Shown: piece by piece, positions 5,826-24,067 of the stretch
Position numbering within the stretch: position 1 is the first letter of the stretch
How the letters are laid out: the number at the start of each line of letters is the position of its first letter
Source: Gammaproteobacteria bacterium
Lineage (GTDB): Bacteria > Pseudomonadota > Gammaproteobacteria > Ga0077536
NCBI GenBank assembly: GCA_963662545.2
Contig: CAXXLL010000003.1
Coordinates: 1 to 64,000 of the forward strand
DNA length: 64,000 nt
Direction of reading: 5' to 3'
Program-made: the position numbers and the translations under genes
Notes under the pieces: model-generated
What the model saw: only the letters and a program-made list of their open reading frames with translations
Database searches by the model: none
What the model was told of the DNA's origin: nothing

Positions 5826-5882
5826 TGCAACGTAGTCGTCTAAGTCGTCGCCGATGCGACTATTGCCGAAGGAAAAATTATC

Positions 5883-5972: not shown

Positions 5973-6024
5973 TAACATTCAGTAAGCTTCTGTTTTTACT
6001 GGATGAATGTCCGTAGGTCCAAAC

Positions 6025-6045
6025 TCTACCCACGTTTCTACCCAC
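6025..6045 (+). repeat. TCTACCCAC x2 (12-bp period), putative integrase arm-type sites
   Basis: Direct repeat about 55 bp downstream of the tRNA 3' end. Confidence 0.5.
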
Positions 6046-6204
6046 AACTCGATCGCTCAAACACGCTTAAATTACCTTTTGAGACGGGCTTCGATCGTGG
6101 GTACAGCCGGCGACTGCATCGTCTGCAGGGACGCTGCAGTCGGGCATTTCGATCTTGTTCCCAAGCGCCCACGGCTACGATCTCAGCGATCCGTCAGTGG
6201 GGGA

Positions 6205-6462
6205 TTATCGGGTGCGGCTCTGCTTTGCGCTGAACGCGCGATTGAAGATTTCGGCTGTCGGCGCCCTCAGCGCGTCTGGGTTATAGCGGCCCCGTGGGCT
6301 ACAGAAATATTCGACGTATGTGAGGCAGGCCAGCGACTCCGCAGCGCACCTATCAGCTTTCGCGCAACCATCGCAGGGCGGCGCCGGCATCTTCTTGTTG
6401 GGCTCAGCGAGCGTCCGTAATAGATCGTGTGCCTTCGTTGAGGGGAGAGCGACGTCTACCAT
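6205..6462 (-). CDS. Small Cys-rich hypothetical protein (phage/integrative-element-like)
   Basis: PPCDGC...RC...LAC pattern; first ORF inside the island; start taken at MVDVAL. Confidence 0.45.
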   Translation of the reverse strand: MVDVALPSTKAHDLLRTLAEPNKKMPAPPCDGCAKADRCAAESLACLTYVEYFCSPRGRYNPDALRAPTAEIFNRAFSAKQSRTR

Positions 6463-6484
6463 AATGCGGATATTACACCCGCCC

Positions 6485-6514
6485 ACGGTCTCCGGAGGAA
6501 CGGTCTCCGGAGGA
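6485..6514 (+). repeat. Perfect tandem 15-mer ACGGTCTCCGGAGGA x2
   Basis: Read directly from the sequence. Confidence 0.85.
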
Positions 6515-6747
6515 CAGCCATGAATGATCGCTTCGGATCTTACCTTCGCGCCTGTGTCGAGATTGGAAATCTATACCGCGTGGCACTCGGCTATTAGATA
6601 TGCGCCAGAGGGGCCGAAGCGGCGCCGATTGAATCTACAACGATGTTTCTGTTCGTACGCATCGGGAACTCGGTAACGATGGCCATATTGCAGCGGGCGC
6701 TATGGCCGGAGGGTGGGGAAGAGGAATAAGAAGCGTCGATATAGCCC

Positions 6748-6820
6748 ACGTCCGCTTTACCCGAAAGCAGCCATCACCGACGATGCGAATCCCACACTTG
6801 ACCATGACGGCTTACGGCCA
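6748..6820 (+). repeat. Palindrome cluster: ACGTCCGCTT-TACCCGA-AAGCAGCCAT plus the left half of the next site (ATGACGGCTT-ACGGCCA)
   Basis: The second site is completed by AAAGCGGACAT at 9409-9419, after the inserted element. Confidence 0.75.
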
Positions 6821-6944
6821 AGGGACTAAACCGCTCGCGCGGTAGGGGGAGGTTTCACCAGGCGTTAGCGATGGATTGACGGGAAGGGTCTGTCCCGTGT
6901 TGATGTTGGTTTGCGACATGCAACTCAACACAAGGAACAGACCC

Positions 6945-7835
6945 ATGACCCAGAACAAGCATTCTATCAGCCCGTTGCGTCAACGCATGCACGACGACAT
7001 GCGCCTTCGTAAGCTCTCTGAGAAAACACAGACAGCCTATATCCGTGCGGTCAAGAATTTCACCCGCTTTCTCGCCCGTTCTCCCGACACCGCCGGTAGC
7101 GAAGACCTGCGGCGTTATCAACTTCACATGGTCTCCACCGGCGTGTCTCGCACGACCATCAACGCCACCATCACCGGTTTGCACTTTTTCTTTGAGATCT
7201 CCCTCGAGCGGCCCGATGCGATGAAACGGATGAGTACCGTGCACGTGGAACGTAAGCTCCCGGTGGTCTTGAGCGGTGAGGAAGTTGCGCGCCTGTTACA
7301 AGCCGCGCCCGGCATCAAGTACCAGGCGGCGTTGTCGCTCGCCTATGGCGCCGGCCTTCGCGCCGGCGAGGGAGTCATGCTGAAAGTCACCGATATTGAC
7401 CGTGAGCGCAAGCTCCTGCGCGTCGAGCAGGGTAAGGGACGCAAGGACCGCTACGCTATGCTCTCACCGACCTTGCTCAAGGTGTTGCGCACCTGGTACC
7501 GCAGCGCTGCATCGCAGGGCAAGATGTGGCCCCACGGCTGGCTGTTCCCGGGGCAGAACCCCGTCAACCCTCTGACCACCCGCCAGCTCAACCGGGCCTG
7601 TCATGCGGCGGTGGACCTAGCGACCATCGATAAGCGCGTGTCGCTGCATACGCTGCGCCATTCATTCGCAACTCATTTACTTGAGCAGGGGGTCGACATC
7701 CGTGTGATCCAGGTGCTGCTCGGACACCAGAAGCTCGAGACCACCGCGCTGTACTCCCAGGTCGCCACGCGCACGCTTCGTGAGGTCGTGAGCCCACTGG
7801 AACATCTCACCCTGGAGTTGAGACCGCCCGCCTGA
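6945..7835 (+). CDS. Tyrosine recombinase/integrase with N-terminal SAM-like domain
   Basis: YGAGLR, GKGRKDR, HTLRHSFATHLLE, LLGH, TTALY; RBS AAGGA before ATG 6945. Confidence 0.93.
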   Translation: MTQNKHSISPLRQRMHDDMRLRKLSEKTQTAYIRAVKNFTRFLARSPDTAGSEDLRRYQLHMVSTGVSRTTINATITGLHFFFEISLERPDAMKRMSTVHVERKLPVVLSGEEVARLLQAAPGIKYQAALSLAYGAGLRAGEGVMLKVTDIDRERKLLRVEQGKGRKDRYAMLSPTLLKVLRTWYRSAASQGKMWPHGWLFPGQNPVNPLTTRQLNRACHAAVDLATIDKRVSLHTLRHSFATHLLEQGVDIRVIQVLLGHQKLETTALYSQVATRTLREVVSPLEHLTLELRPPA

Positions 7836-7848
7836 CCCGGCGGGTGAG

Positions 7849-9042
7849 GTGTCTCGGCAACCGCTCGAGGTCGCGGATATCTTCCGCGCCTACGGTCCGG
7901 CTTGGCGTCATGCGCACGCCGGACACCTCAGTCTCGGGCAGCTGAAGGTCATGTCGGCCATCGAGCGCTGTCGTAGCGCAGCGCTCGGCGGCCACGTTGT
8001 GCACTGCGACGCCTGTGACCACATCGAGATCGCCTACAACTCCTGCCGTAACAGGCACTGCCCGAAGTGCCAGGGCGCAGTGGCCAGGCAATGGCTTGCC
8101 GCGCGCGAAGCCGAGCTGCTACCGGTCGCGTACTTCCACGTCGTGTTCACGGTGCCGGCAGAGATCGGCAACCTCGCCTATCAGAACAAGGCCGTTATCT
8201 ACAACCTCTTGTTCAAAGCCGCCGCCGAGACCTTGCTCACCATCGGGGCCGATCCCAAACACCTCGGGGCACGCCTGGGGCTCACCGCCGTGCTGCATAC
8301 CTGGGGCTCGGCCATGACCCATCATCCCCATCTGCACTGCATCGTGCCTGGCGGCGGGCTCTCGCTCGACGGCGTGCGTTGGCTCGCCTGTCGGCCCAAC
8401 TTCTTCTTACCGGTGCGGGTGCTCTCGCGGTTGTTCCGACGCCTGTTCCTCGGCCAACTGGGTGAACTCCACGCGGGCGGACAGTTGGCCTTCTTCGGCC
8501 AATACCAGGGACTCGAAGACCCGCACGCCTTCGCCGAGTTCCTCACTGCGTTGCGTAAACGCGAGTGGGTCGTTGATGCCCGCCCGCCCTTCGCCGGACC
8601 CGCCGCGGTGCTCGAATACCTCGCCCGATATACCCACCGCGTCGCCATCGCTAACTCGCGTCTCATCACCTTCGACCAACAACGCGTGAGCTTCAAGTGG
8701 AAGGACTATCGCGCCCAGCAGGAGAACCGCTACAAGACCCTGTCGCTCGAGACCGGCGAGTTCATCCGCCGCTTCCTCATCCACGTCCTACCCCACGGCT
8801 TCCATCGCATTCGCCATTACGGGTTGTTCGCAAACGGCGGGCGCACCGAGAACCTCGCAAAGGTCCGCGCTCTGCTCGGCATCGAGACACCCCAAGATGT
8901 CAACGACAACGACAACACTGATGAGGCGACACCCGACTGGCTACGCTGTCCGTCCTGTGGAGGTGCGATGCACATCATCGACACCTTCGAGCCCGGTCAC
9001 GCGCCCTGTGCACCACCGCACCGCGGAGGCGACCCACCTTGA
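7849..9042 (+). CDS. IS91-family rolling-circle transposase with N-terminal Zn-binding domain
   Basis: YNSCRNRHCPKCQ, HPHLHC (HUH), YLARYTHR, RIRHYG. Confidence 0.93.
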   Translation: MSRQPLEVADIFRAYGPAWRHAHAGHLSLGQLKVMSAIERCRSAALGGHVVHCDACDHIEIAYNSCRNRHCPKCQGAVARQWLAAREAELLPVAYFHVVFTVPAEIGNLAYQNKAVIYNLLFKAAAETLLTIGADPKHLGARLGLTAVLHTWGSAMTHHPHLHCIVPGGGLSLDGVRWLACRPNFFLPVRVLSRLFRRLFLGQLGELHAGGQLAFFGQYQGLEDPHAFAEFLTALRKREWVVDARPPFAGPAAVLEYLARYTHRVAIANSRLITFDQQRVSFKWKDYRAQQENRYKTLSLETGEFIRRFLIHVLPHGFHRIRHYGLFANGGRTENLAKVRALLGIETPQDVNDNDNTDEATPDWLRCPSCGGAMHIIDTFEPGHAPCAPPHRGGDPP

Positions 9043-9691
9043 CCCTCGACCGTTCGAACTCGCCAGCCCACCAGCCCACAAATCGCCGCTTTACCACCGG
9101 CAACGTTACCGTCTTGCTTGGCGCCGTGACGAAACCACATAGCGGTACCGATCCCGCTCCTCAACGTCCGGTCACCCACCCACCTCATTGCACGCTGACC
9201 CGTTCTTGCCCGACACACCGCTTGCCGTTGGCTACCGATCATATCAATCCGAACAACGCCACCCTCAAATCCCCATAGCACCGTGCCGACCAACGCGCCG
9301 GCGTTCTTCTCCCGCGGTTTCCTCCCTTGAGGCTTGTCAGACGCCTGCCCCCACCCTCTCGACCCAGTCCGTCCACTGTCTACGGCAGGCATCTGACAAC
9401 CCTTAACAAAAGCGGACATGCCCGGTCTCGCGACATACTACCCCGGCGACCACACATCAATTTGGTTGAGGTCGAAGGTCGTGGCCGGTGGTCGCGCGCT
9501 TCACCCCGCCGTAGGTTTGTCTTGAAGCGTATTTCCTGCTTTTATGTCCCACTCTCGCGGCCCGCTGACGCACCCCATACGCACCCTGAGCGCTGGTCTC
9601 CGGCCGACGGCCAGAGCGACGGTGCCAAGTATAGGCGGCATTAACACCTCTTCCCCCCCACTTCACGTTAAACATCCGGCGAGTAGCAATT

Positions 9692-9889
9692 ATGGGTCGC
9701 CGCCAATTAGTGGAGTTCCATCCCCAAGCCGGCGGTGCACGTCGGTATTGCGAGGCGCTGCTGAAGCGTAGCGTATTGTGCAAAGAAACCCACAAGGATA
9801 CGGTTCGCTTCACCCCTCCGTTGGTGATCAGCAAAGACGAGGTCGATTGGGCGCTCGAGCGAATCGAGCCAGTGCTGCGAGAGAACTGA
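9692..9889 (+). pseudogene. rocD: C-terminal fragment of ornithine aminotransferase (class III)
   Basis: GGARRYCEAL...LCKETHKDTVRFTPPLVISKDEVDWALERI; the N-terminal part is absent. Confidence 0.75.
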
Positions 9890-10115
9890 CGGATAACAGA
9901 AAGGAAATCACGTTTGACATAAGAGGAGTTATACGCACCTCAAGTGTGAACCGCAGATTGTAGTGTCGGTTTTTCCTTCGCTGGAGACCCGACATGGACC
10001 CGAGAGTCACTGTAATAGTTCTTGCGACTGGAGTGAAACTCATCCGATGAGCATGTACTCACCTTGTCGCTGGAAACTTGTTCGCACATAGCTATACCCC
10101 ACGTTCGAGCAGCCG

Positions 10116-11060
10116 TTACCGGTCCAGTTCTTCCAGTACCTTCCCGAAGCTTTCGATGCTCTCAATCGTATTCGGCACCAGAGCCACCTGCAGGTGCGCG
10201 ATACCCTGCTGTGCGAAATCCCGGATGCCGGCGGCAATCTCCTGCGGCGAACCGGAAAGTGGCGTGGCTGTATCCGGCGCCATACTCAACGGTATCTTGC
10301 CTGTTCCGGTCGGGGCCACCTGGATGGAGATGGTGCGTTCCAGCGTCGCCGGATCCCGGCCCGCGTCACGGCATGCCGCATCGACGAGCTCACGCCGTGC
10401 CGGAACCTCGTCGGCGTTGCTGCGTTCGCTGCACAGCCAGGCATTCCACATCTGAACGTGCGGCACCGTGATACGCAACATGCGTTTGCCGGTTGAACCG
10501 ATCATGATTGGGGGCCCATTGGGGCGAGGGCCGCGCGGGCGCAGCTCGCAATCTCTGGCCGAGTAATAGGTGCCCTCGAAATCCACGGCACCGTCCACCA
10601 GCAGGCCGCGGATAATGGTAAAGGCCTCTTCAAAACGGGAGACCAGGCGATCGAACGGATAGCCGAAGGCACGGTATTCATCTCCGTGCCAGCCGGCACC
10701 GAGGCCGAGGATGATTCGTCCACCGGAGATCTCCTCCACCGTATCCACAATTTTGGCCAGCATGGCCGGGTTGCGGTACGAGGTAGGTGTCACCAGTGAG
10801 CCCAGTTCCACTCGTTCGGTTATGGCCGCGAGACCCGTGAGAATGGACCAGCATTCTCTTACGCCCTGCTGCTCGATGGTGGTCGCGTCGCCGCGATAAA
10901 GCAGGTGATCAACGAACCATATGGAGTCGATACCCATGTCCTCGATCAGTCGGGCCATGGCCACATAGTCGCTCCAGCCAGCAGTTTTGCCACCCATGTC
11001 CCACTCGGCCTCGGGGAGAACCAGGCCCAGTTTCAACGGTCGCTTCCTTTGTGAGTTCAT
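10116..11060 (-). CDS. LLM class flavin-dependent oxidoreductase
   Basis: DSIWFVDH, AAITERVELGSLV, RNPAMLAK, SGGRIILGLGAGW. Confidence 0.9.
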   Translation of the reverse strand: MNSQRKRPLKLGLVLPEAEWDMGGKTAGWSDYVAMARLIEDMGIDSIWFVDHLLYRGDATTIEQQGVRECWSILTGLAAITERVELGSLVTPTSYRNPAMLAKIVDTVEEISGGRIILGLGAGWHGDEYRAFGYPFDRLVSRFEEAFTIIRGLLVDGAVDFEGTYYSARDCELRPRGPRPNGPPIMIGSTGKRMLRITVPHVQMWNAWLCSERSNADEVPARRELVDAACRDAGRDPATLERTISIQVAPTGTGKIPLSMAPDTATPLSGSPQEIAAGIRDFAQQGIAHLQVALVPNTIESIESFGKVLEELDR

Positions 11061-11256
11061 CGTCTTCCCCCGGTCGATATTGGATGAGTACCTGCATCAC
11101 CATCTCAGAGCGTCGTAGTCTTATCGAATCTTTGACCTGACACGAAAATCCCTCGAGAAAGCAACGGCGATCGGACATGGCTTCTTCTCATAAATACGGC
11201 GGAATTATCGTGAGAAATCGAGCCACTGCCCTAGCAGAAGCCTACCAGCAGAATTC

Positions 11257-11455
11257 ATGGAGACTCAGACATCACTTCGCGAGGGGGTCGGCTCCGGCGG
11301 CGTTTCAGTGGCGATGGCAGAAGCGTGGCCCAACTTGTCGATCACGCTCGCTGACCTTCCCAGCACGGTCGCAGTTGCGGAGCGTTATATCAGCGAAGCT
11401 GGGCACAAGTCTCGCATTCAGTTGCGACCGACCGAGATTGGCGCCGAAAAGCTGA
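11257..11455 (+). pseudogene. Fragment of a SAM-dependent O-methyltransferase
   Basis: GVGSGGVSVAMAEAWPNLSITLADLP..VAERYISEAG..SRI resembles the Methyltransf_2 core; truncated at both ends. Confidence 0.6.
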
Positions 11456-11486
11456 AGGAACCTACGACGTAGCCATTATACGGGGT

Positions 11487-11756
11487 GTGATTCCCGTACT
11501 CTCCCCGGACCAGAACCAGGCTGCAGAAGATAGAGGCCGGTTCGACTTGATTATGCTGCAGGCATTTCGCGAAAGTGATATTCAATACCATCAAAAACGA
11601 TCACAAGCACTCGATGAAGATCACTGGTCTGCAACATACAGAACGATAGAATTCATCGTAAATACCGCTGGCGGAAGGGAATCTTGGGAGCGCCAAAAAA
11701 ACTTTGTAAGTAATTCTTTTCAAGACCTCGTGAACGAAATGCACAGAAATGCCTAG
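11487..11756 (+). pseudogene. 3' half of a hypothetical gene related to 15319-15876
   Basis: EDRGRF...YHQ...LDEDHW...GGRESW...FQDLVNE mirrors the C-terminal pattern of the 15319 protein. Confidence 0.5.
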
Positions 11757-11793
11757 CAAACTGATCGAATTGGAAGTCATGGTCGGCCGCTAA

Positions 11794-12103
11794 ATGTCCG
11801 CAAAGGGTCCAGACTGTGTGAAAACTCAAAAATACGACGACGAAATAAAAATATTCCCCACCAGCATAGTTGTTATGCCCCTCGAATAGGGATCGGCATT
11901 TCAATTAGATCCAATTTCGAGGGTAGTTCCCCCACTTTTGAAAAATGAAAATAGTTTTCACACACTCTGGGTCGTGAGCCGCCGCCTCGCGGCAATGCAG
12001 CATTGCTAAACGTTACGTCTTCTATGCGCCCGAAAGCGGTCGTCGAGTAGCATTGGGCGGAACGTTAGCGGAGCAGGACGGTTCTCGGCCAACAACAAAC
12101 GTT
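11794..12103 (+). repeat. Tripartite palindromic repeat, copy A (site 1 split by a MITE)
   Basis: ATGTCCGCAA-AGGGTC|GT-GAGCCGCC; ACGTCTTCTA-TGCGCCCGA-AAGCGGTCGT at 12015; AGGACGGTTC-TCGGCCA at 12075. Confidence 0.85.
11810..11969. mobile_element. 160-bp MITE, copy 1 (IS1182-like ends)
   Basis: TIR CAGACTGTGTGAAAACT / AGTTTTCACACACTCTG; GGTC on both flanks; near-identical to 15919-16078. Confidence 0.85.
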
Positions 12104-12117
12104 AAGTCCGTCGCGCT

Positions 12118-12260
12118 GTCTGTATAAAAATGGTTGACCGCCGGGCAGATCCTCGCGCTAAACTCCCGTCACCATGGAAATAAACACTGTTACTGGGTTT
12201 CTAAATGATGTTCGCCCGTTATTTTTATACGGACCGAGATAATTACTGTTCAGAGGTTCC
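12118..12260. repeat. Small IR-bounded element plus a solo IS/MITE end
   Basis: GTCTGTATAAAAAT (12118) / ATTTTTATACGGAC (12221-12234); TTCAGAGGTTCC at 12249-12260 matches the MITE end at 63127-63138. Confidence 0.5.
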
Positions 12261-12282
12261 TTAAAGGCGCAAGTCATCGTCA

Positions 12283-13188
12283 TCACGTCATCTGGACAAA
12301 CTGTTCAATCAGCGCCGACACCGTCTCCGGCGCATCCTCCTGTAGAAAATGCCCGACGCCAGGTAGCGTGACAACCGGCGCGTCGGGCCACAAATCTTTA
12401 AAACACCCGATGGTAAATGATTGAGGCAGCGCGCGGTCGGCCTCGCCGAACACCATCATGGCGGGCTTTTGCTTTACCGAAGCGACGGCCTCCGGCGTGC
12501 GGATGGATTTGAGGTAATCCACCGTTTCCCTGTCGGCGATACATTGCGGAAAGCGGTAGGCCGCTATACATGACTCAGGCGTTGGGAAGGGCGCGGCGTA
12601 GGCGCGAACCCAAGTCTCGTCGATATCGGCAGTGCGTTCGAAACCGACGCGTTTCATTACCGACAGCACGGTACTGTTCAAGTTGTGGATGGTCGGTTCA
12701 AAAGAAGGCCCGGCAACCCACACGGGCCACGGTGATGTGCTGAACACAGACGAGCTTTCCTTGGAGCGGCCACCGACAATCGCATTCATGACGCAAAGCC
12801 GTTTGACCCTTTCAGGGTGGCGGTATGCAACCGCACTGCCTATCGGCCCACCCCAGTCCTGCAGCACCAACGTCAGGTTGGTTAAATCAAGCTCGAGTAC
12901 CAGCTTGTCCAAATTCTCGCAGTGCTCTTCGATGGTGTATCGACGGTCCTGTGGCGTTTCGCTTTTGCCGAAGCCCATCTGATCCGGGACCACCACGCGG
13001 CCATGCCTCGCCAATCGTGGAATGATGTTCCGGTAGAGGTAGCCCCAGGTAGGTTCTCCGTGGACGCAAAGAAACGTCTCTGTGCCTTCGGGGTTTTCAT
13101 CCACGTAGTGCATCGCAAAGCCGTTGCCGTGGAAGAAATTCGGAGCAAACGGCCAGGTGCCGTCGAAGGTCTCGTGCGCTTCAATCAT
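12283..13188 (-). CDS. Alpha/beta hydrolase, haloalkane dehalogenase-like
   Basis: MHYVDE, HGEPTWGYLYR, PDQMGFGKS, QDWGG (Asp nucleophile), GHFLQED. Confidence 0.88.
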   Translation of the reverse strand: MIEAHETFDGTWPFAPNFFHGNGFAMHYVDENPEGTETFLCVHGEPTWGYLYRNIIPRLARHGRVVVPDQMGFGKSETPQDRRYTIEEHCENLDKLVLELDLTNLTLVLQDWGGPIGSAVAYRHPERVKRLCVMNAIVGGRSKESSSVFSTSPWPVWVAGPSFEPTIHNLNSTVLSVMKRVGFERTADIDETWVRAYAAPFPTPESCIAAYRFPQCIADRETVDYLKSIRTPEAVASVKQKPAMMVFGEADRALPQSFTIGCFKDLWPDAPVVTLPGVGHFLQEDAPETVSALIEQFVQMT

Positions 13189-13413
13189 GATTTAGTCGGT
13201 TCCTTCGGAAAAAAGGGTGATGGAGGGACGATATTCTCGTCAGGATTCGAATTCTAATCCCTCGGTCACCGAAATTTGAACGAAAACGATGACCTCCGGG
13301 CTTCCCAGTCTGCGCCCAGTTATGGGCGCCGCGACAACGGTGTTGCCCGCTTTGCTTACCGCCTTTCCGAAGGCCGCGCTGCTTTCTATTAGGGTAGTTG
13401 TCGAAATCGACGA

Positions 13414-13556
13414 ATGTCGCATAAGGGTCGGTAGCTGCCCTGTCGCCTCAGCGCAGCATTGCTAAGAATTACGTCTGCAATGTGCTCGTAAGCGGTCGTT
13501 CTGTAGCGTTTGGGCAGTGCGTTCTTGACTACGATGTTCTATCTCAAAAGCGACGT
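13414..13556 (+). repeat. Tripartite palindromic repeat, copy B (uninterrupted; site 3 degenerate)
   Basis: ATGTCGCATA-AGGGTCGG-TAGCTGCCCT; GCGCAGCATTGCTAAG linker; ACGTCTGCAA-TGTGCTCGT-AAGCGGTCGT at 13471. Confidence 0.85.
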
Positions 13557-13560
13557 CTAA

Positions 13561-13800
13561 ATGACCGTTGAACTGAAATTCTTCGACAAGCGAACCGATG
13601 TCGGAAACATTAGAAACCGAGCGTTCTACAGAACCTGCGGAACCCCAATATCGGAAACCACGACGGGGTATCCTGGTCAGATCTCCATAACGGTGGGTAC
13701 GCCGGATGATCCCCGATGTGCAATGCTCGATGCCAAGGAGCCCGCACTGGCTCGAGAGCGTCATTTGATTGAAGGGGTTCGAGAAGGCCCCGAGATTTAA
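13561..13800 (+). pseudogene. Fragment of a GFA/CENP-V family protein
   Basis: RAFYRTCGTPI...ISITVGTPDDP matches the GFA C-terminal half; the N-terminal Cys cluster is missing. Confidence 0.6.
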
Positions 13801-13825
13801 ATACCTGTTTCCAGAGTACGGATTA

Positions 13826-14485
13826 CTATGCGGCGGAGCGGGCTTCGGTGCCTTGATTCAACCGCGCCATCAGTTCGTCCGCGGTCAAGAGCTCCGAGAT
13901 ATAACCTTGCTTGAGGGTCTCGACAGTGTACTTGTGGATCATGGCCGCCGGTGTGCCGTCGTCGGTATCGAAAGTACAATTCAGATCGTCAACGAAGATC
14001 ACATCGTAGTCACGGTTGAATGCGTCGATCGAGGTCGTCATGCAGCAGAAGTTCGTCGCCATACCGATGACGATGCAAGTGTTACGTCCGCGGAAAGGCG
14101 GGTTGTTCATGACGACGTCGAGCTTGGTGTTCCAGAAGAGGCTGTACTTCGGTTTCGGAATGTAGACCTCGTATTCGTTGAAGGCGTCGGGCTTCAATTC
14201 GTCGACGAGTTCAACGCCCTTGGTTCCTGAATTCAGTGCAACGCCGTCGTAAATCGGCCCCCATCGATCGAGCAACGTACCTCTCATGTCGGTTGAGACG
14301 CCGTGCGCGATCGGGATCTTGTGGTCGCGCGCGAACTTGAGCAATTGCCCCATCTTGCCGTACATATCGCGGCCTTCGTCAATCACGAAAGGCTCGCCCT
14401 CTAGCAGGAAATCATTGATCATGTCGAGGCACAGGATGATAGCGTCGTCAACGAGGGGCTTGTTTGGAGCTATTCGGCTGTACAT
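13826..14485 (-). CDS. Isochorismatase/cysteine hydrolase family protein
   Basis: LDMINDF (Asp), PKPKYS (Lys), GMATNFCCMTTSIDAF (Cys). Confidence 0.88.
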   Translation of the reverse strand: MYSRIAPNKPLVDDAIILCLDMINDFLLEGEPFVIDEGRDMYGKMGQLLKFARDHKIPIAHGVSTDMRGTLLDRWGPIYDGVALNSGTKGVELVDELKPDAFNEYEVYIPKPKYSLFWNTKLDVVMNNPPFRGRNTCIVIGMATNFCCMTTSIDAFNRDYDVIFVDDLNCTFDTDDGTPAAMIHKYTVETLKQGYISELLTADELMARLNQGTEARSAA

Positions 14486-14612
14486 GGTGTGGTCGTCCTA
14501 TCGCGCATAGACCCTACAATCATAGTATGCGCGTCCCGATTATTCGACAAAGCGTCACCGTCGGTAACGAATCAAAACAGCAAGGATAACTAGATTTTCG
14601 TCCAGATCGGCG

Positions 14613-15259
14613 ATGACCGCTGGTGACGGTCAGAGAGGGCGCTATGGGGTGGCGGAGAGGCCCGTAGTACTGAGGAAGCCGGGTAATGCTGGTGGAGGGA
14701 AGGGGCCTTAGTTCAAGACGGGCACTGAAAGCGGCAAAGCACAGGAGATTGGGGCAACCCTAGGCAACTCCGGTAAGGTGCGGGCGCGGTGGAAGGCGTC
14801 ACATGTTGAAGCGAAGGAAGAACCCGGATTGCGATCTGGAAGCGAATGCCCACCCAAGTGGTGGCATTGGCGGTTGTGTGCAGAACGCTCGGTTCGTGCA
14901 CGCCGGGATACACGGCCCGGTGTGGTGGGTCGGGTGAACTGCGGATGACCTTTCGTGTGCCAAGGCATGAGTCTTGTCCGAGAGCCGGATGCGGTAGTTC
15001 CGCCTGTCCGGTTCGATGAGGAGGATGTGGAAACGGAGTGATGGTCCGGCTATTGAGGCACCGCCAGACGAAAGGGGCGGCAACAGATTGGCTGAACCTT
15101 AGACCACCGCGCCACATCCTTACTCTACCGTGAGCCGCCCCCTCGCGGCAGCGCAGCACAGCTAGAGATTAGGTCTGCAGTACCCCCGTAAGCGGTCGTG
15201 CAGTAGCTTTCAGTGGAGCGTTAGCTGAGCAGGACGGCTCTCGGCCACAACCGGACGTT
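14613..15259 (+). repeat. Tripartite palindromic repeat, copy C (site 1 split by a group II intron remnant)
   Basis: ATGACCGCTGG|...|CGTGAGCCGCC; AGGTCTGCAG-TACCCCCGT-AAGCGGTCGT at 15171; AGGACGGCTC-TCGGCCAC-AACCGGACGT at 15231. Confidence 0.85.
14624..15128 (+). ncRNA. ORF-less, 5'-truncated group II intron remnant (class E-like)
   Basis: DII/DIII-like GTGGCGGAGAGG..GAAGCCGGGTAATG..GGAGGGAAGGGGCC; DV GAGCCGGATGCG...GTCCGGTTC (14982-15014); extended DVI ending CTCTAC; only a decayed trace of the RT N-terminus (..EAKEEPG..). Confidence 0.8.
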
Positions 15260-15318
15260 CAAGTCCTCGACGCCCTCGGATATGCTGCCCGCTGGCTTCG
15301 CCAACGGGAGATTGAAAG

Positions 15319-15876
15319 ATGAACTGGGAAGCGGTAGGTGCAATTAGCGAAGGGGTCGGAGCCATTGCGGTCGTATTGACTCTCATATATCTCGCCATGC
15401 AGATCCGGCAGAACACTTCACAACAAAAGCGCGAAGAAATCGTCTCCGTTCAAGTTGGGCAAAACAAATTAGTCGAACAGCTTCAGGATCCGTCACTGGT
15501 GCGTGCGTACGTTCGGGTAACAGATGGCAACACTCCTGTCAGCACGGCTGACCGAGCAAGGACAATTTTCTGGGTCATACAATACATAAACCACTTCGAA
15601 ATAGTTTTTGACCTCTATCATGACGGGTCACTGGATGACGACCGTTACGAACACTGGGAATCGATTGCCGTTAGCGTTGTAGCGACCAAAGGTATACGGG
15701 CGTGGTGGGACGGTGAGTCAGGAAAACTCGCCTTCAGACCAAAAGTGCGCGATCTCATCGATCAAAAACTCAATGACGCCGAGAATCCGCCTACCCCGTT
15801 CAACAGAGGGTGGGAGATTATGAACCCCGAATCCTGGAGAGATGTCGAATTAGACGACGTTGCGAGAGGAACCTAA
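15319..15876 (+). CDS. Hypothetical protein with N-terminal TM anchor (MNWEAVGAI...TLIYLAxQIRQNT type)
   Basis: Intact 185-aa ORF with RBS GGGAG, located between repeat copies C and D. Confidence 0.8.
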   Translation: MNWEAVGAISEGVGAIAVVLTLIYLAMQIRQNTSQQKREEIVSVQVGQNKLVEQLQDPSLVRAYVRVTDGNTPVSTADRARTIFWVIQYINHFEIVFDLYHDGSLDDDRYEHWESIAVSVVATKGIRAWWDGESGKLAFRPKVRDLIDQKLNDAENPPTPFNRGWEIMNPESWRDVELDDVARGT

Positions 15877-15902
15877 ATCCAAACAATCTTGTGGAGTTAC
15901 CG

Positions 15903-16165
15903 TGATCCGCTCCGGGTCCAGACTGTGTGAAAACTCAAAAATACGACGACGAAATAAAAATATTCCCCACCAGCATAGTTGTTATGCCCCTCGAATAGGG
16001 ATCGGCATTTCAATTAGATCCAATTTCGAGGGTAGTTCCCCCACTTTTGAAAAATGAAAATAGTTTTCACACAGTCTGGGTCGGAAGCCGCCTAATTGAG
16101 GAAGCGCAGCACTGCTCTAGGTTCGGTCTGCAATGCGCTCAGAAGCGGTCGTCCAGTAGCGGACT
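15903..16165 (+). repeat. Palindromic repeat, copy D (site 1 split by a MITE; site 3 lost)
   Basis: TGATCCGCTC-CGGGTC|GG-AAGCCGCC; GCGCAGCACTGCT linker; CGGTCTGCAA-TGCGCTCAG-AAGCGGTCGT. Confidence 0.8.
15919..16078. mobile_element. 160-bp MITE, copy 2 (IS1182-like ends)
   Basis: Perfect TIR CAGACTGTGTGAAAACT / AGTTTTCACACAGTCTG; GGTC duplication. Confidence 0.85.
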
Positions 16166-16204
16166 TCACTAGCATGAGCTGGCGCGCTCTGCCATTAGGA
16201 CCCT

Positions 16205-16885
16205 TTAAAATTTCTCGACCCAGGGGCGTAGTTCAACTTCCCACGTCCACGCGCTGCGATGTTGTCGGTGAATATCCAGGTAGCTTTGGGCGATGGCGTC
16301 CGGATCGAGTTGCTCGTCACCACCGGGCGCTGCATCTGGACTCCTTATGCCACCATCGATCACGAAATGTGCGACGTGAATGCCGTGCGGCGCAAGTTCC
16401 CGCGCCGATGCTTGAGCCAGGCCACGCAAGCCGAACTTGCCCATTGCGAATGATGATGAGTTGGCGAATCCTTTGACGCTGGCGGACGCGCCGGTCATCA
16501 ACAAGCTGCCCGTTCCGCGTGCGAGCATGCGCTTGGCCGATTCCTGGGTTACCAAAAAACCGCCGTAACAAGTCACCAACAGCGCATCGCGCACGGCGCG
16601 GGCGTCTATCTCGGTGACTGGCCCACGGACTCGCGCGCTAGGATTATAGACAACGACGTCAGGGGTGCCGATATTGTCGTCGGCGCTGGCGAACATCTTT
16701 TGAACGTCAGCCGGATCCGACGCATCGCATGCTACGGTGATGGCCTCTGTTTGTTCCACCAACGCTTCGAGTTTGTCGGTGTTACGCGCCGCCAACATGA
16801 CCTGCATGCCGTTTGACCGAAACAGTCGCGCCAATGATGCACTCAAGCCGTCGCCGGCACCTATGATCAATGCTGATTCGCTCAT
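16205..16885 (-). CDS. Short-chain dehydrogenase/reductase
   Basis: IIGAGDGLS, TGASASVKG, FAMGKFGLRGLAQ, HVAHFVIDG. Confidence 0.9.
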   Translation of the reverse strand: MSESALIIGAGDGLSASLARLFRSNGMQVMLAARNTDKLEALVEQTEAITVACDASDPADVQKMFASADDNIGTPDVVVYNPSARVRGPVTEIDARAVRDALLVTCYGGFLVTQESAKRMLARGTGSLLMTGASASVKGFANSSSFAMGKFGLRGLAQASARELAPHGIHVAHFVIDGGIRSPDAAPGGDEQLDPDAIAQSYLDIHRQHRSAWTWEVELRPWVEKF

Positions 16886-16971
16886 ATGTCCCCCTCAAAA
16901 TTTCTAAATACACGGATGCGTTCTCTTTATCCTATCCTCCCGCCTGTCGTTCATAAATGACCATCCAGACC

Positions 16972-18120
16972 TAAATAGGTGTTCCAAAAACTCGATCAAA
17001 TAAAAAGAACTGAGGTGACATTCAGAGATCAGAGGTTGTATCGAGCAATCTACGTTCCCGAAAGAGGTCACCTGAGTATGGATAGTTTAGTGTCATTGAC
17101 GCGCTCACAGAAACGTCGCTTTAAGCGGTTGATTCAACGCAGCGATAACGGGCGGGTGGTTCGCCGCGCTCAAGTCCTGTTGCAGTTAGCTTCAGGCGTC
17201 TCACCGACGGCCGTGTCACGCAGTTTGTCGGTCGCGCGTTCAACGGTTTATCGATGGGTCACGCAATTCCAGACCGCGGGTGAAGCCTTTCTCGAGGCGT
17301 GCGGCTCGGGCCGGCGGGCGTATACGGTGGATGACACCCTGTTGGAGACGCTCGCCGAGTTAGTTGAGCAGCCGCCCAGTGATTATGGCTACCTGCGCAG
17401 TACGTGGACGAGCGAGATGCTGGCCGAGACGCTGAATTCGTTGCTGTCACGGCCCATTCACGCCTCTACGGTACGTCGCTGGCTAGTTAATTTGGGATTC
17501 GGCTGGCGTCGTGCTCGTCCGACCTTACATCTGCGCGACCCACGGGCAGCCACGCGCCTGAAAGCCATTCATCGTGCGTTGTCTCGAGCCCCATCGGGGC
17601 ATGAAGTGTTTTACGCCGATGAGGTCGATATCGACCTCAATCCCAAAATCGGTTTCCTTTGGTCTACTCAAGGTTGTCAACGTGCCATCCCCACGCCTGG
17701 GCAAAACCGGAAACGCTATCTGGCGAGCGCGCTGCACGCACGAACCGGTCGCGTTGCGTATGTCGAGGGCACACGGAAAAACAGCGACCTGTTCCTTTGC
17801 CTGCTCGACCACCTGCGGCAAACTTACCGCGCCGCGCGTCGAATTATCTTGATCGTGGATAACTACATCATCCACAAATGTCGCTTGGCACACGTCTGGC
17901 TAAAGCACAATCCGAAATTCCGATTGCTGTTCCAGCCGGCCTGTCAGCCCTGGGTCAATGACATTGAGAAACTCTGGAAACAGTTGCACGACAATGTCAC
18001 CCGGAATCATCGTTACTCGACCATCGACCGTCTGATGGACGCAGTACGTGCCTTCATGCGTGCGGCAAGTCCATTCCCGGGAAACTGCCCGAGTGTCGCA
18101 AGATTTGGATCACCTATTTA
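16972..18120 (+). mobile_element. IS630-family insertion sequence
   Basis: TA-AATAGGTG / CACCTATT-TA ends with TA duplication in a CTAG target. Confidence 0.88.
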
Positions 18121-18121
18121 G
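17078..18121 (+). CDS. IS630-family transposase
   Basis: HTH N-terminus; YADE, VDNYIIHK, NDIEKLW DDE motifs; start uncertain. Confidence 0.88.
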   Translation: MDSLVSLTRSQKRRFKRLIQRSDNGRVVRRAQVLLQLASGVSPTAVSRSLSVARSTVYRWVTQFQTAGEAFLEACGSGRRAYTVDDTLLETLAELVEQPPSDYGYLRSTWTSEMLAETLNSLLSRPIHASTVRRWLVNLGFGWRRARPTLHLRDPRAATRLKAIHRALSRAPSGHEVFYADEVDIDLNPKIGFLWSTQGCQRAIPTPGQNRKRYLASALHARTGRVAYVEGTRKNSDLFLCLLDHLRQTYRAARRIILIVDNYIIHKCRLAHVWLKHNPKFRLLFQPACQPWVNDIEKLWKQLHDNVTRNHRYSTIDRLMDAVRAFMRAASPFPGNCPSVARFGSPI

Positions 18122-18233
18122 TCAGGCTGCCTTTCGGATATATTGTCAGCGTCAGGTTTTTCAAAGCAAAAAGAAACCGGCCAAAGCTGGTTCTACGAGC
18201 TACGGAGGATGCCCCAACTATTCGTGACCCGGA

Positions 18234-18267
18234 GTGTCCGAAATGGGTCTATTGTGTTGAAAAAGTC
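18234..18267 (+). repeat. Left half of a GGGTC-type palindrome followed by an IS-end-like sequence
   Basis: GTGTCCGAAA-TGGGTC then TATTGTGTTGAAAAAGTC (resembles the MITE end); cut off by IS6. Confidence 0.55.
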
Positions 18268-18286
18268 GTACGGCATACGATTTTGA

Positions 18287-19084
18287 GGTTCTGTCAGGTT
18301 GGCGCCGGATCGCGGACAATTAACGCATGGCAGAAGCTCCTAATTATCGCGGATATCGATTTCCGCCTGAAATCATCGCGCGGTCGGTGTGGTTGTACCA
18401 TCGTTTTACGCTCAGCTTTCGCGATATCGAAGACCTTTTAGCCGAGCGCGGCGTGACGGTTTCGTATGAAACTATCCGCCAGTGGTGTCTGACGTTTGGA
18501 CCCGATTACACTCGCCGAATTAGGAAACATCAGGGGCCTTGCGGCGACTGTTGGTTTCTCGATGAGGTCGTCGTCTCAATTCAAGGAAAGCGTCGTTACC
18601 TTTGGCGAGCCGTGGACCAAGACGGCGATCTGATTGAGATCCTCGTACAAAAACGCAAGGATACTAAAGCCGCTAAGCGCTTCTTTCGAAAGGCGCTACG
18701 CTCACAAACAGCCGTTCCTATCGAGATAACAACCGATAAGCTCCGTAGTTACGCCTCAGCCAAACGCGAGGTAATGCCGTCCGTGCCACACTGCCAAGAT
18801 CACTATGCGAATAACCGCGCGGAAGTTTCACACGAGCCGACGCGGGAACAAGAAAGGCAGATGCGCGGGTTTCGATCGGACGGACACGCGCAGCGCTTTC
18901 TAAGCGTCCACGGTCAAGTCAACAATCTGTTTCGCCTCGGTCGTCATCTCCTCAGAGCGAAGAACTATCGTGAACTACGCTCCAAGGCATTTCTCACTTG
19001 GTCGGAGGTGACATGCGCCTGCTGATTGACGATGATTCTACTTGCTCGAAAGATCGGGCCTGCGCGCAACAACCTGACAAAACC
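18287..19084 (+). mobile_element. IS6-family insertion sequence, no target duplication
   Basis: TIR GGTTCTGTCAGGTT / AACCTGACAAAACC; flanks GATTTTGA vs CAAGTGCG differ. Confidence 0.9.
18327..19025 (+). CDS. IS6-family transposase
   Basis: YRFPPEII, LSFRDIEDLLAERG, WFLDE, YLWRAVD, NNRAEVSH. Confidence 0.93.
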   Translation: MAEAPNYRGYRFPPEIIARSVWLYHRFTLSFRDIEDLLAERGVTVSYETIRQWCLTFGPDYTRRIRKHQGPCGDCWFLDEVVVSIQGKRRYLWRAVDQDGDLIEILVQKRKDTKAAKRFFRKALRSQTAVPIEITTDKLRSYASAKREVMPSVPHCQDHYANNRAEVSHEPTREQERQMRGFRSDGHAQRFLSVHGQVNNLFRLGRHLLRAKNYRELRSKAFLTWSEVTCAC

Positions 19085-19199
19085 CAAGTGCGGCCATAAG
19101 ATGAATCGCGAGCGCTACCTAAGAAGCGAGCGAGTCCGACGCGTGACATTAGAAAGGACCGTACTGAGCACATTTGAGACGATATAGACGCGATTCTGA

Positions 19200-19270
19200 G
19201 CGTCAGCTTTCCCGTAAGCCGACGGTCGCTTTGCATCAAGCTACAGCCGGGTTCGGTCATTAGCGGTCAG
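19200..19270 (+). repeat. Degenerate palindrome pair of the island repeat family
   Basis: GCGTCAGCTT-TCCCGT-AAGCCGACGG and ..TTCGGTCAT-TAGCGGTCA. Confidence 0.45.
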
Positions 19271-19584
19271 CAGGGTTCTCCCGACTCAGGTTCGCTATTC
19301 AGGCCAACATCGCATCGAAGCACAGATTGACCACTGTTTGATGACCTGGGGATACTCGATGCACTTGGGGAAAAGACCTTTTATTCTGCCTATACTCCGA
19401 TCGAAGTTCATCGGCGTGGCGTTTGGCCTGTGGCTTGCAGAACTGGAGCCCGGTCGCAGCGGCGCTTGTGAGGGACCAGGAGTGAGGAGATACGTCCCGA
19501 TATTTGGACCACAAATTTCCTTTTTTTCCTAGAGCTGTCGTGTTCGCGCGGATCTAGAGGTAATTACGTCGGAAGGAGGGTGAT

Positions 19585-20358
19585 ATGGACCTTGGTTTAA
19601 AAGACCGCGTAGCGGTCATTACTGGAGCGAGCTATGGGCTGGGCGAGGCCATGGCCCAGCGCCTAGTCAAAGAGGGAGCACGAGTCGTTATCTGCGCGCG
19701 CGGCGAGGAGCAATTGAACCGTACTGCACAAGCTCTGGGTCCCAACGCACTAGCAATCCAGGCTGATGTGAGCAAGGCGGCAGACATCACACAACTTTTT
19801 GATAGCACTGTGAAGCACTTCGGCAAACTTGACATCCTGGTCAACAATGCTGGCTGGTATCACCTGAGCCAAGGACTGGATCTATCCGACAAGGAGTGGC
19901 AGGACAATCTTGATATCAACCTGTTCAGCGTGATTCGCTGTTCGCGGCTTGCCGTTCCCCTGATGCAGAAACAGAAATGGGGTCGGATTGTCAATATTTC
20001 TTCGATCTTCGGCAAACAGCCTAACGCGGGCTTGATCGACTACAACACCACCAAAGCAGCAGTTATCAGTCTCACCAAAACCCTGGCCGACGAGTTGGCC
20101 AAGGAAAACATACTGGTCAACGCAGTCTGTCCAGGACCAACGCGTACGCCATTGTGGGATGGTCTGGCCAAGACGTTTAATCCTGACGATCCGGATGGCA
20201 TGATTAATGACTTTGCCGCCGCGAATATTCCGCTAGGCCGGTTTGGCCGCCCTGAGGAGATTGCCGACCTGGTTGCGTTTCTGTCCTCAGAACGGGCTAG
20301 CTTTATCACTGGTGCAGCTTATGACATCGACGGCGGGATGGTGAAGAATATGGCGTAG
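19585..20358 (+). CDS. Short-chain dehydrogenase/reductase (FabG-like)
   Basis: TGASYGLG, LVNNAG, YNTTK, VNAVCPG, IDGG; RBS GGAGG. Confidence 0.92.
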   Translation: MDLGLKDRVAVITGASYGLGEAMAQRLVKEGARVVICARGEEQLNRTAQALGPNALAIQADVSKAADITQLFDSTVKHFGKLDILVNNAGWYHLSQGLDLSDKEWQDNLDINLFSVIRCSRLAVPLMQKQKWGRIVNISSIFGKQPNAGLIDYNTTKAAVISLTKTLADELAKENILVNAVCPGPTRTPLWDGLAKTFNPDDPDGMINDFAAANIPLGRFGRPEEIADLVAFLSSERASFITGAAYDIDGGMVKNMA

Positions 20359-20465
20359 GAGTGAGCTGCCATCAGAAAACTGGACCAGTTCGTAGGGGCA
20401 GGTCAGATCCACCCGTTTCTTCCCGACTGTTCGAGCAGGAACTAACCGTTGCGGAGTTTGTAGTG

Positions 20466-20538
20466 ATGACCGCTTCGGGCACATAACGGACTCACGAGCC
20501 TTTCGCGCGAACGTCCGCTATCGAGCGCAGGAGACATT
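20466..20538 (+). repeat. Palindrome pair of the island repeat family
   Basis: ATGACCGCTT-CGGGCACA-TAACGGACTC and ACGTCCGCTA-TCGAGCGC-AGGAGACATT. Confidence 0.6.
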
Positions 20539-20635
20539 CGGCGGTTGCCAGATACGGTCGAAAATTAGAATCGACATCTGTAAGAACAAGTCTGAGTTTT
20601 TACACCTGAGTTCTAGATTAGAAGCTCGATCCTGC

Positions 20636-20659
20636 TGACGGTAACTTTGACGGTAACTT
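20636..20659 (+). repeat. TGACGGTAACTT x2, putative integrase arm-type sites
   Basis: Perfect 12-bp tandem repeat near the island end. Confidence 0.55.
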
Positions 20660-20958
20660 CCAAAAGTCTAACTGGACATTACTCGCCGCTTCAGTACGTT
20701 ACGCGCCGAATTAAATTGCACCAGGTGACCCTTAATCCCCGGACCCTTCGGAATGCGTTTTCAAAGCTGGGCCGTCGCTGGCCGGTTCAAGGAAGTTTGG
20801 TTGGCTGCAATGATTGGAAATACTTATCGACGCCTACCTGGCGGGGGTGTTGTCGTCACGCACGGCCGCCAGGAAGCGGACGGATAGGACCGCGGCAACG
20901 ATCAGATTGGGGGCTAATCGGGGGGCCGGATATTATTTAAATGAATGAACTATCTATT

Positions 20959-20971
20959 AATCAATATGTTA
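20959..20971 (+). promoter_or_regulatory. IHF-binding site next to the tRNA 3' end
   Basis: AATCAATATGTTA matches WATCAANNNNTTR exactly, in an AT-rich tract. Confidence 0.6.
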
Positions 20972-20982
20972 ACTTTTAAGTT

Positions 20983-21072
20983 TGGCGGAGAGGGAGGGAT
21001 TCGAACCCCCGAAGGGCGCTAACCCTTGCTGGTTTTCAAGACCAGTGCATTCAACCGCTCTGCCACCTCTCC
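20983..21072 (-). tRNA. tRNA-Ser(TGA), second copy
   Basis: Reverse complement of 5883-5972. Confidence 0.97.
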
Positions 21073-21129
21073 GATAATTTTTCCTTCGGCAATAGTCGCA
21101 TCGGCGACGACTTAGACGACTACGTTGCA

Positions 21130-21303
21130 TCGCGCCCAGGAGGGATTGATTCACACGAGCTTGGGCTCGCGCTCACCCCTGCGGGGCGCCTCCGCTTCGC
21201 TGCAGCGTCCAAACTCGCTTTCGCGAGTTTGTCGAACCCCCGAAGGGTGCTACCCCTTGCTGCATTTCAACTCCAGTGCATTCAACTGCTCCAACGCCTC
21301 TCC
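21130..21303 (-). pseudogene. Degenerate tRNA-Ser copy with T-loop insertion, second copy
   Basis: Mirror of 5652-5825. Confidence 0.8.

Positions 21304-22299: not shown

Positions 22300-24067
<1,768 letters not shown>

Follow-up and report, generated by a model that had tools for sequence, protein, structure and literature searches.

The first 64 kb of contig C3 of the genome G000 (5.58 Mb in three contigs, 58% G+C), a stretch referred to below as the window, contain a 15-kb segment (5973-20982), with identical tRNA-Ser(tga) genes on both sides, in which unrelated accessory genes are separated by co-oriented copies of a unit of about 145 bp. Each unit is made up of three imperfect palindromes, termed sites 1 to 3, with conserved linkers. 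In our estimate, it is about as likely as not that each of these units is a block of double-stranded recombination sites and that strand exchange in the centres of sites 1 and 3 both builds and reshuffles the arrays they form. The literature searched contained no description of such arrays.

Four main units (A-D) lie on the + strand of the window, and a repeat search recovered them as a four-copy family at 11969, 13425, 15125 and 16078. A first-pass annotation of the window had described this repeat, together with its three palindromes, position-specific spacer classes and conserved linkers, and the description is borne out by a consensus of 117 distinct genomic copies. Site 1 consists of an outer arm (GATGTCCGCT), two variable nucleotides, the centre GGGTCG, two further variable nucleotides and an inner arm (AGCGGCC). 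A conserved linker joins it to site 2, in which two arms conserved at 0.93 and 0.86 (consensus-base frequency over the 117 distinct copies, as throughout) enclose a variable spacer of about 10 nt (0.76). After a variable stretch of about 30 nt follows site 3, with an inner arm (AGCCGCC), two variable nucleotides, the centre CGGCCA, three variable nucleotides and an outer arm. When reverse-complemented, site 3 corresponds to site 1 arm for arm, and the 6-bp centres differ (GGGTCG vs CGGCCA). Modules of 0.6-10 kb run from site 3 of one unit to site 1 of the next and, since site 3 is an inverted site 1, lie between inverted, heterospecific sites with their outer arms inward, not between direct repeats; the 115-bp unit cores are conversely flanked by sites with their inner arms inward. 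The two 6-bp centres are the most conserved part of the unit (0.96 in site 1 and 0.93 in site 3), the 2-3 nt flanking each centre the least conserved (0.54-0.70), and the arms intermediate (0.63-0.90). Centres that are more conserved than the arms and the adjoining nucleotides are predicted for an overlap region that has to match between recombining partners, and simple protein-binding palindromes do not predict this pattern. Site 2 is probably an accessory binding site.

Rfam at gathering thresholds gave two tRNAs only and no RNA family over the unit, and the only other relevant match at E<=1 was Intron_gpII, whose 36.1 bits fall short of the gathering score of 40. A structured-RNA role was dropped, the consensus fold of 21 units being weak (-7.6 kcal/mol, with a covariation term of -0.11). 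No promoters or terminators were found in the units in a scan of 11700-16300, the counts being at or below shuffled expectation.

The unit is abundant and clustered throughout the genome. A profile built from the four window copies yielded 112 genomic matches at E<1e-5, which excludes chance, and a profile from 30 clean copies yielded 120 matches that merge into 119 units. Clusters, defined as three or more units, number 12 and hold 110 of the 119 copies in a combined span of 270 kb, or 4.8% of the 5.58 Mb, which is not the scatter expected of ordinary repetitive extragenic palindromes (REPs). Orientation is uniform within ten of the 12 clusters, among them runs of 33, 17, 10, 9 and 8 units, and the two mixed clusters contain three - and one + units, and four - followed by six + units, respectively. 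The longest arrays reach 93 kb and are chromosomal. Intervals between units have a median length of 2.1 kb and contain 0-11 open reading frames (ORFs); by a crude ORF caller with a filter on third-position G+C (GC3), 84 ORFs share the strand of the unit and 99 are opposite to it. The units are thus polar and the genes are without polarity. Accordingly, the uniform unit polarity proposed by the first-pass annotation stands for ten of the 12 clusters, whereas uniform gene polarity and one gene per interval fail genome-wide, even though three window intervals do each hold one ORF (a dehalogenase-like gene, an isochorismatase gene and a 185-aa ORF). The proposed placement in tRNA-linked islands holds in part: a tRNA gene adjoins three of the 12 clusters, that of the window included (two of the three also have an island integrase), and tRNA genes lie within 12 kb of two further clusters, but there is no general tRNA linkage. 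Small integrase ORFs beside arrays (C3:1447224, C3:352378 and C2:73456) proved to be truncated catalytic domains or an ordinary island integrase, and were uninformative.

Array cargo is diverse, including hydrolases, short-chain dehydrogenases, luciferase-like monooxygenases, a pyrroloquinoline quinone (PQQ) dehydrogenase, a major facilitator superfamily (MFS) transporter, a methyltransferase, a flavocytochrome c sulfide dehydrogenase, an acetoacetate decarboxylase and many insertion sequences (ISs). One 8-kb segmental duplication, comprising three modules, is present in two arrays (C2:2578486-2586675 and C3:910003-918192) and has copies of an IS1182-type IS at its borders.

Outside G000, the unit is restricted to one genus, an uncultured marine or sponge-associated gammaproteobacterial genus, plus a few environmental contigs. 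A sequence-only covariance model searched against 41 genomes found strong matches only in two other species of the genus, G001 (27 units) and G002 (7 units), with marginal matches in two genomes (E 3e-4 to 7e-4) and none in 36. The site-2 pattern, scanned over 185,579 species genomes plus a metagenome collection, led to true units only in the G001 and G002 records, in two small contigs of metagenome-assembled genomes (L074 and L079) and in the metagenome contigs L092, L108 and L124; everything else that the pattern picked out scored at most 23 bits or not at all. 'Empty' palindromes combining two outer arms occurred four times outside units, which is chance level. Isolated palindromes with an outer-type arm on both sides were noted outside arrays at C2:1217083-1217242, at C3:1262223-1263907 and at about 20500-20530 of the window, two of them occupied by an IS1182-type IS or a related miniature inverted-repeat transposable element (MITE). 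They may be junctions of excised modules or primary attachment sites.

Comparison of units that share homologous flanks in different contexts, within G000 and against G001, G002 and metagenome contigs, indicates where the arrays have been rearranged. The starting set was 14 unit pairs with a flank at least 88% identical; four were set aside (three whole-region duplicates and one uninformative) and three junctions were added. Homology breaks in the centre of site 1 or site 3 at seven of the 11 informative junctions, as judged by comparison only. Three of these breaks are in site-1 centres (window unit B vs G002; L108 vs C2:697796; C2:1628732 vs G001) and four in site 3 (window unit A vs G002; position 8387 of G001 vs C2:1627053; C3:930016 vs C2:76187; position 10118 of L042 of G001 vs C2:1113522). 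At all seven, the outer arm has 0 mismatches and the unit core 7-20 mismatches per 27-31 positions. The clearest illustration is the dehalogenase module of the window, which is found in G002 at about 95% identity from site-3 centre to site-1 centre, with both adjoining unit cores and both neighbouring modules different. As module homology ends at the centres, the unit of rearrangement would consist of half of site 3, the genes and half of site 1, and the 115-bp unit cores assort apart from the modules. The expectation of breakpoints inside the spacers therefore holds at these seven junctions; of the other four, three break between sites 1 and 2 and one is ambiguous. An apparently inverted and duplicated 'cassette' in G001 relative to C2:710902-712064 was traced to an IS630-family IS with a CTAG target in the unit, and provides no evidence of inversion.

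The genome also encodes true integrons, against which the units can be compared directly. Two integron integrases, encoded at C2:996723 and C3:1527239, score above the NCBIfam cut-off, with 462 and 461 bits respectively. In the first integron (C2:985244-997664), ten self-complementary attC repeats of 110 nt with conserved end motifs lie upstream of intI; in the second (C3:1524818-1528180), intI is preceded by one attC. These 11 attC sites have conserved inverse-core and core motifs and are unrelated in sequence to the units; attC core motifs are absent from the 117-copy unit consensus, and both intI genes are more than 65 kb away from the nearest unit. Folded as single-stranded DNA (ssDNA), true attC sites reach z-scores of -7.6 to -10.9 (four of four folds), while three units folded on both strands range from -0.02 to -1.02 and are no better than shuffled sequences (six of six folds). 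This contrast excludes attC, in agreement with the first-pass annotation, and weakens every reading based on single-strand hairpins, including REPs and REP doublets (REPINs) and the alternative of ssDNA hairpins used by an HUH enzyme that the annotation had raised. The sites of the unit behave as double-stranded DNA.

Features of the locus are as follows.

5883-5972, + strand: tRNA-Ser(tga); the left arm of an inverted duplication stops at its 3' end, which also delimits the 15-kb segment on the left
6748-6821, + strand: degenerate unit (a site-1-like left arm and a left half of site 3 ending CGGCCAAG), recognised by eye and not significant by nhmmer
6822-9409, + strand: IS91-family two-gene element, inserted into the degenerate unit between spacer and right arm of site 3, without target duplication; the right arm of site 3 follows at 9410-9419
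6876-7835, + strand: IntI/Xer-like tyrosine recombinase ('rec', 319 aa), without the integron-integrase insertion
7849-9042, + strand: IS91-family HUH (Y2) transposase, by domain matches
10116-11060, - strand: luciferase-like monooxygenase, cargo
11793 to about 12101, + strand: unit A, with a 160-bp MITE (11810-11969) in the site-1 centre and a 4-bp target duplication, GGTC
12283-13188, - strand: haloalkane-dehalogenase-like alpha/beta hydrolase, cargo; module also in G002, between different units
13412-13557, + strand: unit B, uninterrupted; site 1 at 13412-13439, site 2 at 13469-13500 and a diverged site 3 at about 13531-13557
13826-14485, - strand: isochorismatase-family hydrolase, cargo
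14611-15258, + strand: unit C, with its left arm at 14611-14621, an intron fragment (14622-15125) in the site-1 spacer and the remainder at 15126-15258
15319-15876, + strand: 185-aa ORF, cargo, with no Pfam or NCBIfam family
15902 to about 16195, + strand: unit D, with a 160-bp MITE (15919-16078) in the site-1 centre
16205-16885, - strand: short-chain dehydrogenase, cargo
16971-18121, + strand: IS630-family IS (DDE_3), one of about 20 near-identical genomic copies
18236-18286, + strand: left half of site 1 (18236-18253), then the end of a MITE or IS variant, cut by an IS6 element; by eye
18287-19085, + strand: IS6-family IS (DDE_Tnp_IS240)
19205-19325: loose resemblance to sites 2-3, by eye
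19585-20358, + strand: short-chain dehydrogenase, cargo
20466-20545, + strand: one or two half-sites standing alone, with a possible palindrome of two outer arms among them; by eye
20983-21072, - strand: second, identical tRNA-Ser(tga), which starts the right arm (20983-26954) of the inverted duplication

The four partial units reported by the first-pass annotation can be made out by eye as half-sites or degenerate copies, but none reached E<0.1 on the + strand in a sensitive nhmmer search.

Five families of mobile elements target the unit, four of them homing to the spacers of its two short sites and the fifth to a CTAG. The IS1182-type IS (1,685 bp, encoding a 478-aa DUF772/DDE transposase) and its MITEs of about 160 bp amount to about 35 elements, and in 69 of 69 strand-wise detections the central GGTC of site 1 flanks the element as a 4-bp duplication; related MITE ends are also found after the CGGCC of site 3. 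A group II intron occupies the site-1 spacer of three units. The fragment in unit C is an ORF-less group II intron and must be 5'-truncated, given that two other genomic copies extend further 5'. An IS630-family IS targets the CTAG in the linker of the unit; the IS630-family IS of 16971-18121 has about 20 genomic copies at >99% identity, which suggests a recent expansion in the organism. Finally, the IS91-family element with its recombinase gene is present in six genomic copies, all co-oriented with the units and all located at the junction of the site-3 spacer and right arm or in tandem behind another copy, without duplication. Its five independent left junctions follow CGGCCA plus 2 nt (CAAG, CAAC, CAGG and CAGA), with the right arm of the site continuing immediately beyond the element.

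The window copy of this element (6822-9409) encodes a Y2 HUH transposase with a zinc-binding N-terminal domain (matches to PF04986 and PF14319, Y2_Tnp and Zn_Tnp_IS91; 429 bits against NF033538, cut-off 125). Members of the IS91 family insert without target duplication beside a preferred tetranucleotide, and the same is seen here, with no duplication and a tetranucleotide-like target. In this the element, with its Zn_Tnp_IS91 and Y2_Tnp domains, resembles IS91 elements with an upstream tyrosine-recombinase gene, and ISfinder presumably lists such two-gene members. The recombinase is 36% identical to the IntI of this genome but misses an insertion of 25+9 residues, and it scores 186.6 bits in two stretches against TIGR02249 (IntI), below the cut-off of 265. 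Among simple tyrosine recombinases, an 'integron-like' subgroup with an incompletely conserved insertion has been described (accessible part of PMC8138268). Eleven of the 14 IS91-transposase matches in the genome sit in arrays or at array heads. The recombinase family is very large: relatives at 70-80% identity number in the thousands, most of them from short contigs, and the family was found in nine of 300 sampled genomes of the class, counting this genome and the unpublished G164. In five further genera, the sequence just before the left end of the element consists of an arm-like pentamer and then 10 (sometimes 13) nt; the target split by the element in G100 is a nearly perfect site 1, although the DNA around it is AT-rich. 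The site-1 motif was not enriched over a reversed-pattern control in five other genera with the recombinase-IS91 pair. G100 also contains a 709-aa ORF (G100:C35, L145 793-2922) that fuses the SAM-like and catalytic domains of the recombinase to the zinc-binding and Y2 transposase domains of IS91, an architecture for which no description was found in the literature searched. A pairing of IS91 and XerD genes has been reported beside tetX-catB in Chryseobacterium, with no mechanism given in the accessible part of the source (PMC11194056), and a literature search found neither a palindromic arm-N10-arm target nor a link to site arrays for IS91-recombinase elements. The genome's own canonical dif-like 28-mer occurs once, at C2:2180004, and is unlike the unit sites; the host XerC/XerD pair was rejected as the array enzyme on these sequence grounds only.

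If the units are indeed recombination-site blocks, each would comprise three core sites of the tyrosine-recombinase type, with arms of roughly 7-10 bp around a spacer of about 10 bp. A recombinase would exchange strands in the conserved centres, and only between sites with the same centre; such exchange would excise or insert modules, or swap them by double crossover, and continued module exchange would yield co-oriented arrays of unrelated accessory genes. The observed breakpoints would then stem from site-specific strand exchange. The acting enzyme in this genome may be the IS91-borne, IntI-like candidate recombinase; another enzyme, or one since lost, is equally possible. The recombination-site interpretation of the first-pass annotation, which missed the inversion of site 3 relative to site 1, is in this form partly supported. 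Its expectation of a co-occurring recombinase family is likewise matched within this genome, where all six copies occur with the arrays and are co-oriented with the units, but the candidate belongs to a widespread IS91-type IS.

A number of observations weigh against this proposal. The three junctions that break between sites 1 and 2 fall outside the predicted crossover points, and two of them lie in an interval with the CTAG used by the IS630-type IS. The site-1 and site-3 breakpoints themselves coincide with IS and MITE insertion points, so that homologous recombination mediated by ISs, followed by IS loss, could have produced them. Insertion of the recombinase-IS91 element looks like IS91-type transposition and not integrase-mediated integration, and any action of the recombinase on the sites is putative. 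The recombinase family is widespread, whereas the unit is confined to its genus and a few environmental contigs, and neither the recombinase nor the IS91 transposase was found in G001 (27 units, 89% complete) or G002 (7 units, 95% complete), the latter having only two Phage_integrase matches, both Xer-like by score. Parts of the region are contained in 20 public runs, and in the four that were compared the short Logan contigs break at repeats and give no usable signal of excision or circles; the joints listed can all be other unit, MITE or intron copies and so speak neither for nor against excision, circle formation or the duplication at the contig start. The gene order at this end of the contig may also be partly an assembly product or a strain variant, of which the conclusions here are independent.

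The principal competing explanation, unlikely in our view, is that the unit is a lineage-specific non-autonomous repeat, similar to a MITE or a bacterial interspersed mosaic element (BIME) with terminal inverted repeats of about 27 bp, which spread through intergenic DNA of accessory islands and now serves mainly as an IS landing pad, the mosaic arising from homologous recombination between IS or MITE copies that occupy the same position in different units and from occasional precise IS loss. The ends of the unit are indeed imperfect inverted repeats, about 35 IS1182-type elements occupy the identical site-1 position, the segmental duplication described above is bordered by IS1182-type copies, genus restriction is common to many REP and MITE families, and the two sister genomes yielded no cognate enzyme. 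What such a repeat does not lead one to expect is that the outer half of the 'terminal repeat' moves with the neighbouring module and not with the unit core, or that the 6-bp centres are better conserved than the arms. Seven clean junctions, moreover, have no IS in either genome, no empty outer-arm/outer-arm targets exist beyond the four chance-level matches, and a palindrome-ended MITE inserting at random would not be expected to keep one orientation throughout arrays of up to 33 units. A quite improbable alternative assigns the sites to the IS91-type HUH (Y2) transposase, as nicking or termination signals from which modules move as rolling-circle 'transposition units', in the manner proposed for gene capture by ISCR elements, with the recombinase only selecting the target. 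The concentration of IS91-transposase matches in arrays or at their heads, the invariable entry of the element at a spacer/right-arm junction without duplication, the rule of an arm plus 10 nt in other genera and the recombinase-transposase fusion in G100 are all consistent with it. Yet the module-linked part takes most of the spacer on both sides, which a crossover in the centre would explain better than would a nick at the edge of the arm; with sites 1 and 3 inverted, equivalent nicks would fall on opposite strands; the units form no single-strand hairpin; and the IS91 transposase was not found in G001 or G002.

Explanations that invoke single-strand hairpins or attC sites have, even taken together, only a slight chance of being correct. 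It is very unlikely that the sites are REP- or REPIN-like hairpins handled by an HUH enzyme of the REP-associated tyrosine transposase (RAYT) type. Like REPs, they are imperfect palindromes targeted by insertion sequences, and the genome has seven Y1_Tnp matches, one of which, a 78-aa fragment (C2:745668), lies inside an array; the other six are outside arrays by coordinates, their flanks uninspected, and no intact Y1 gene was seen flanked by units. The failure of all six unit folds to exceed shuffled sequences, the lack of a consensus structure or covariation, and the confinement of 92% of copies to 4.8% of the genome are at odds with dispersed REPs. It is more improbable still, to the point of being scarcely tenable, that the arrays are integron cassette arrays lacking an integrase (clusters of attC sites lacking integron integrases, CALINs) with unusual attC sites. 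Two integron integrases are encoded by the genome, and the array architecture and diverse enzyme cargo recall sedentary chromosomal integrons, but the true attC sites, with their core motifs and long hairpins, are sequence-unrelated to units that have neither, the cargo genes are not co-oriented and neither intI is near a unit.

Set beside known systems, the arrays are apparently neither an integron nor the Acinetobacter dif-module system, the latter being closest in logic. In dif modules of Acinetobacter Rep_3/OrfX plasmids, pdif sites for XerC/XerD of roughly 28 bp and with two arms separate modules in alternating orientation, with like arms inward (C and D modules). A comparable alternation is found here, in that the arms of the reverse-complemented site 3 match those of site 1, with site 2 breaking strict alternation. 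Inversions, deletions and single-module replacements are documented for Acinetobacter dif modules, and 'empty' modules exist (accessible part of PMC13141974); a dedicated IS family targets pdif sites (accessible part of PMC10132070). Unlike dif modules, the units are chromosomal, with 119 copies in arrays up to 93 kb; they form fixed triplets, every second 'module' being the conserved 115-bp core with its third site; their centres fall into two fixed classes and not many; their sites show no resemblance to the genome's own dif; the host belongs to an uncultured marine or sponge-associated genus; and the recombinase is only a candidate. With integron arrays they share long co-oriented arrays of lineage-specific repeats, about 100-150 bp, between unrelated accessory genes, as well as a candidate recombinase 36% identical to IntI. 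Specialised elements, namely IS1111-attC and group IIC-attC elements, target integron attC sites, and the unit repeats too are targets of ISs and group II introns. They differ from integron arrays in having no ssDNA hairpin or attC motifs, no gene polarity, 0-11 genes per interval and no adjacent intI, in a candidate recombinase without the IntI-specific insertion, and in coexisting with true integrons that have a different repeat. Tn3-family res sites and, with their accessory sequences, the cer/psi-type sites of Xer systems are blocks of about 120-150 bp in which proteins bind three imperfect palindromes, at least one of them perhaps in an architectural role, and the unit is a block of similar size with three imperfect palindromes. 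A res site is present in single copy and serves each transposon once, crossover being confined to subsite I; the units, by contrast, form arrays of 119 copies with breakpoints at two of three subsites, and the sole serine-resolvase match in the genome is a broken gene.

A bolder formulation, which we consider unlikely, is that the arrays represent a third, independent gene-capture platform, in which an IntI-like recombinase without the attC-binding insertion (whether lost or never had) rides on an IS91 rolling-circle element and recombines two heterospecific classes of double-stranded site in inverted pairs, promoter-bearing modules being swapped by double crossover and not one by one as in integrons. 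Should the sites be active, they would provide a second route, beside integrons in the same cell, by which accessory genes are stockpiled and reshuffled, and would take the dif-module principle beyond small Acinetobacter plasmids, to chromosomal arrays of roughly 100 kb whose sites are unrelated. Recombination at the units would explain how the accessory islands of this lineage, with their dehalogenase-like hydrolases, oxidoreductases, transporters and sulfide dehydrogenase, were assembled. It would also supply a testable DNA target for the widespread and unexplained pairing of an IS91 transposase with an Xer/IntI-like recombinase, including that beside tetX-catB resistance genes, and possibly new orthogonal recombination sites for genome engineering. 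On a more modest reading, the locus still shows two short sites whose spacers attract four mobile-element families, besides a CTAG in the unit that is used by a fifth.

The locus stands at the repeat-rich start of a contig. A perfect inverted duplication of 5,972 bp, with arms at 1-5972 and 20983-26954 that each end in tRNA-Ser(tga), surrounds the 15-kb segment, and contig C2 ends in 4,459 bases (C2:2586676-2591134) that are the exact reverse complement of window positions 8971-13429; further parts of the segment are repeated at 99.7-99.8% identity in the terminal array of C2. It is this combination of duplication and overlap that makes the local gene order suspect as partly an assembly product or strain variant. 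An assembly fold-back or strain bubble at a repeat-rich island is the likely cause, and the true join may run from the end of C2 through the recombinase-IS91 element to the tRNA-Ser at C3:20983. The arms of the duplication carry serS, a yccA-like gene and the tRNA-Ser gene. An 82-nt stretch at 5642-5723 (mirrored at 21232-21313), 231 bp upstream of the tRNA-Ser gene, is 84% identical to that gene and received no call from ARAGORN or Rfam; it could be the remnant of a tRNA gene copy or of a former attachment-site duplicate. Window positions 44903-46611 and 59748-61456 form another perfect inverted repeat (1,709 nt), which probably represents two opposed IS copies.

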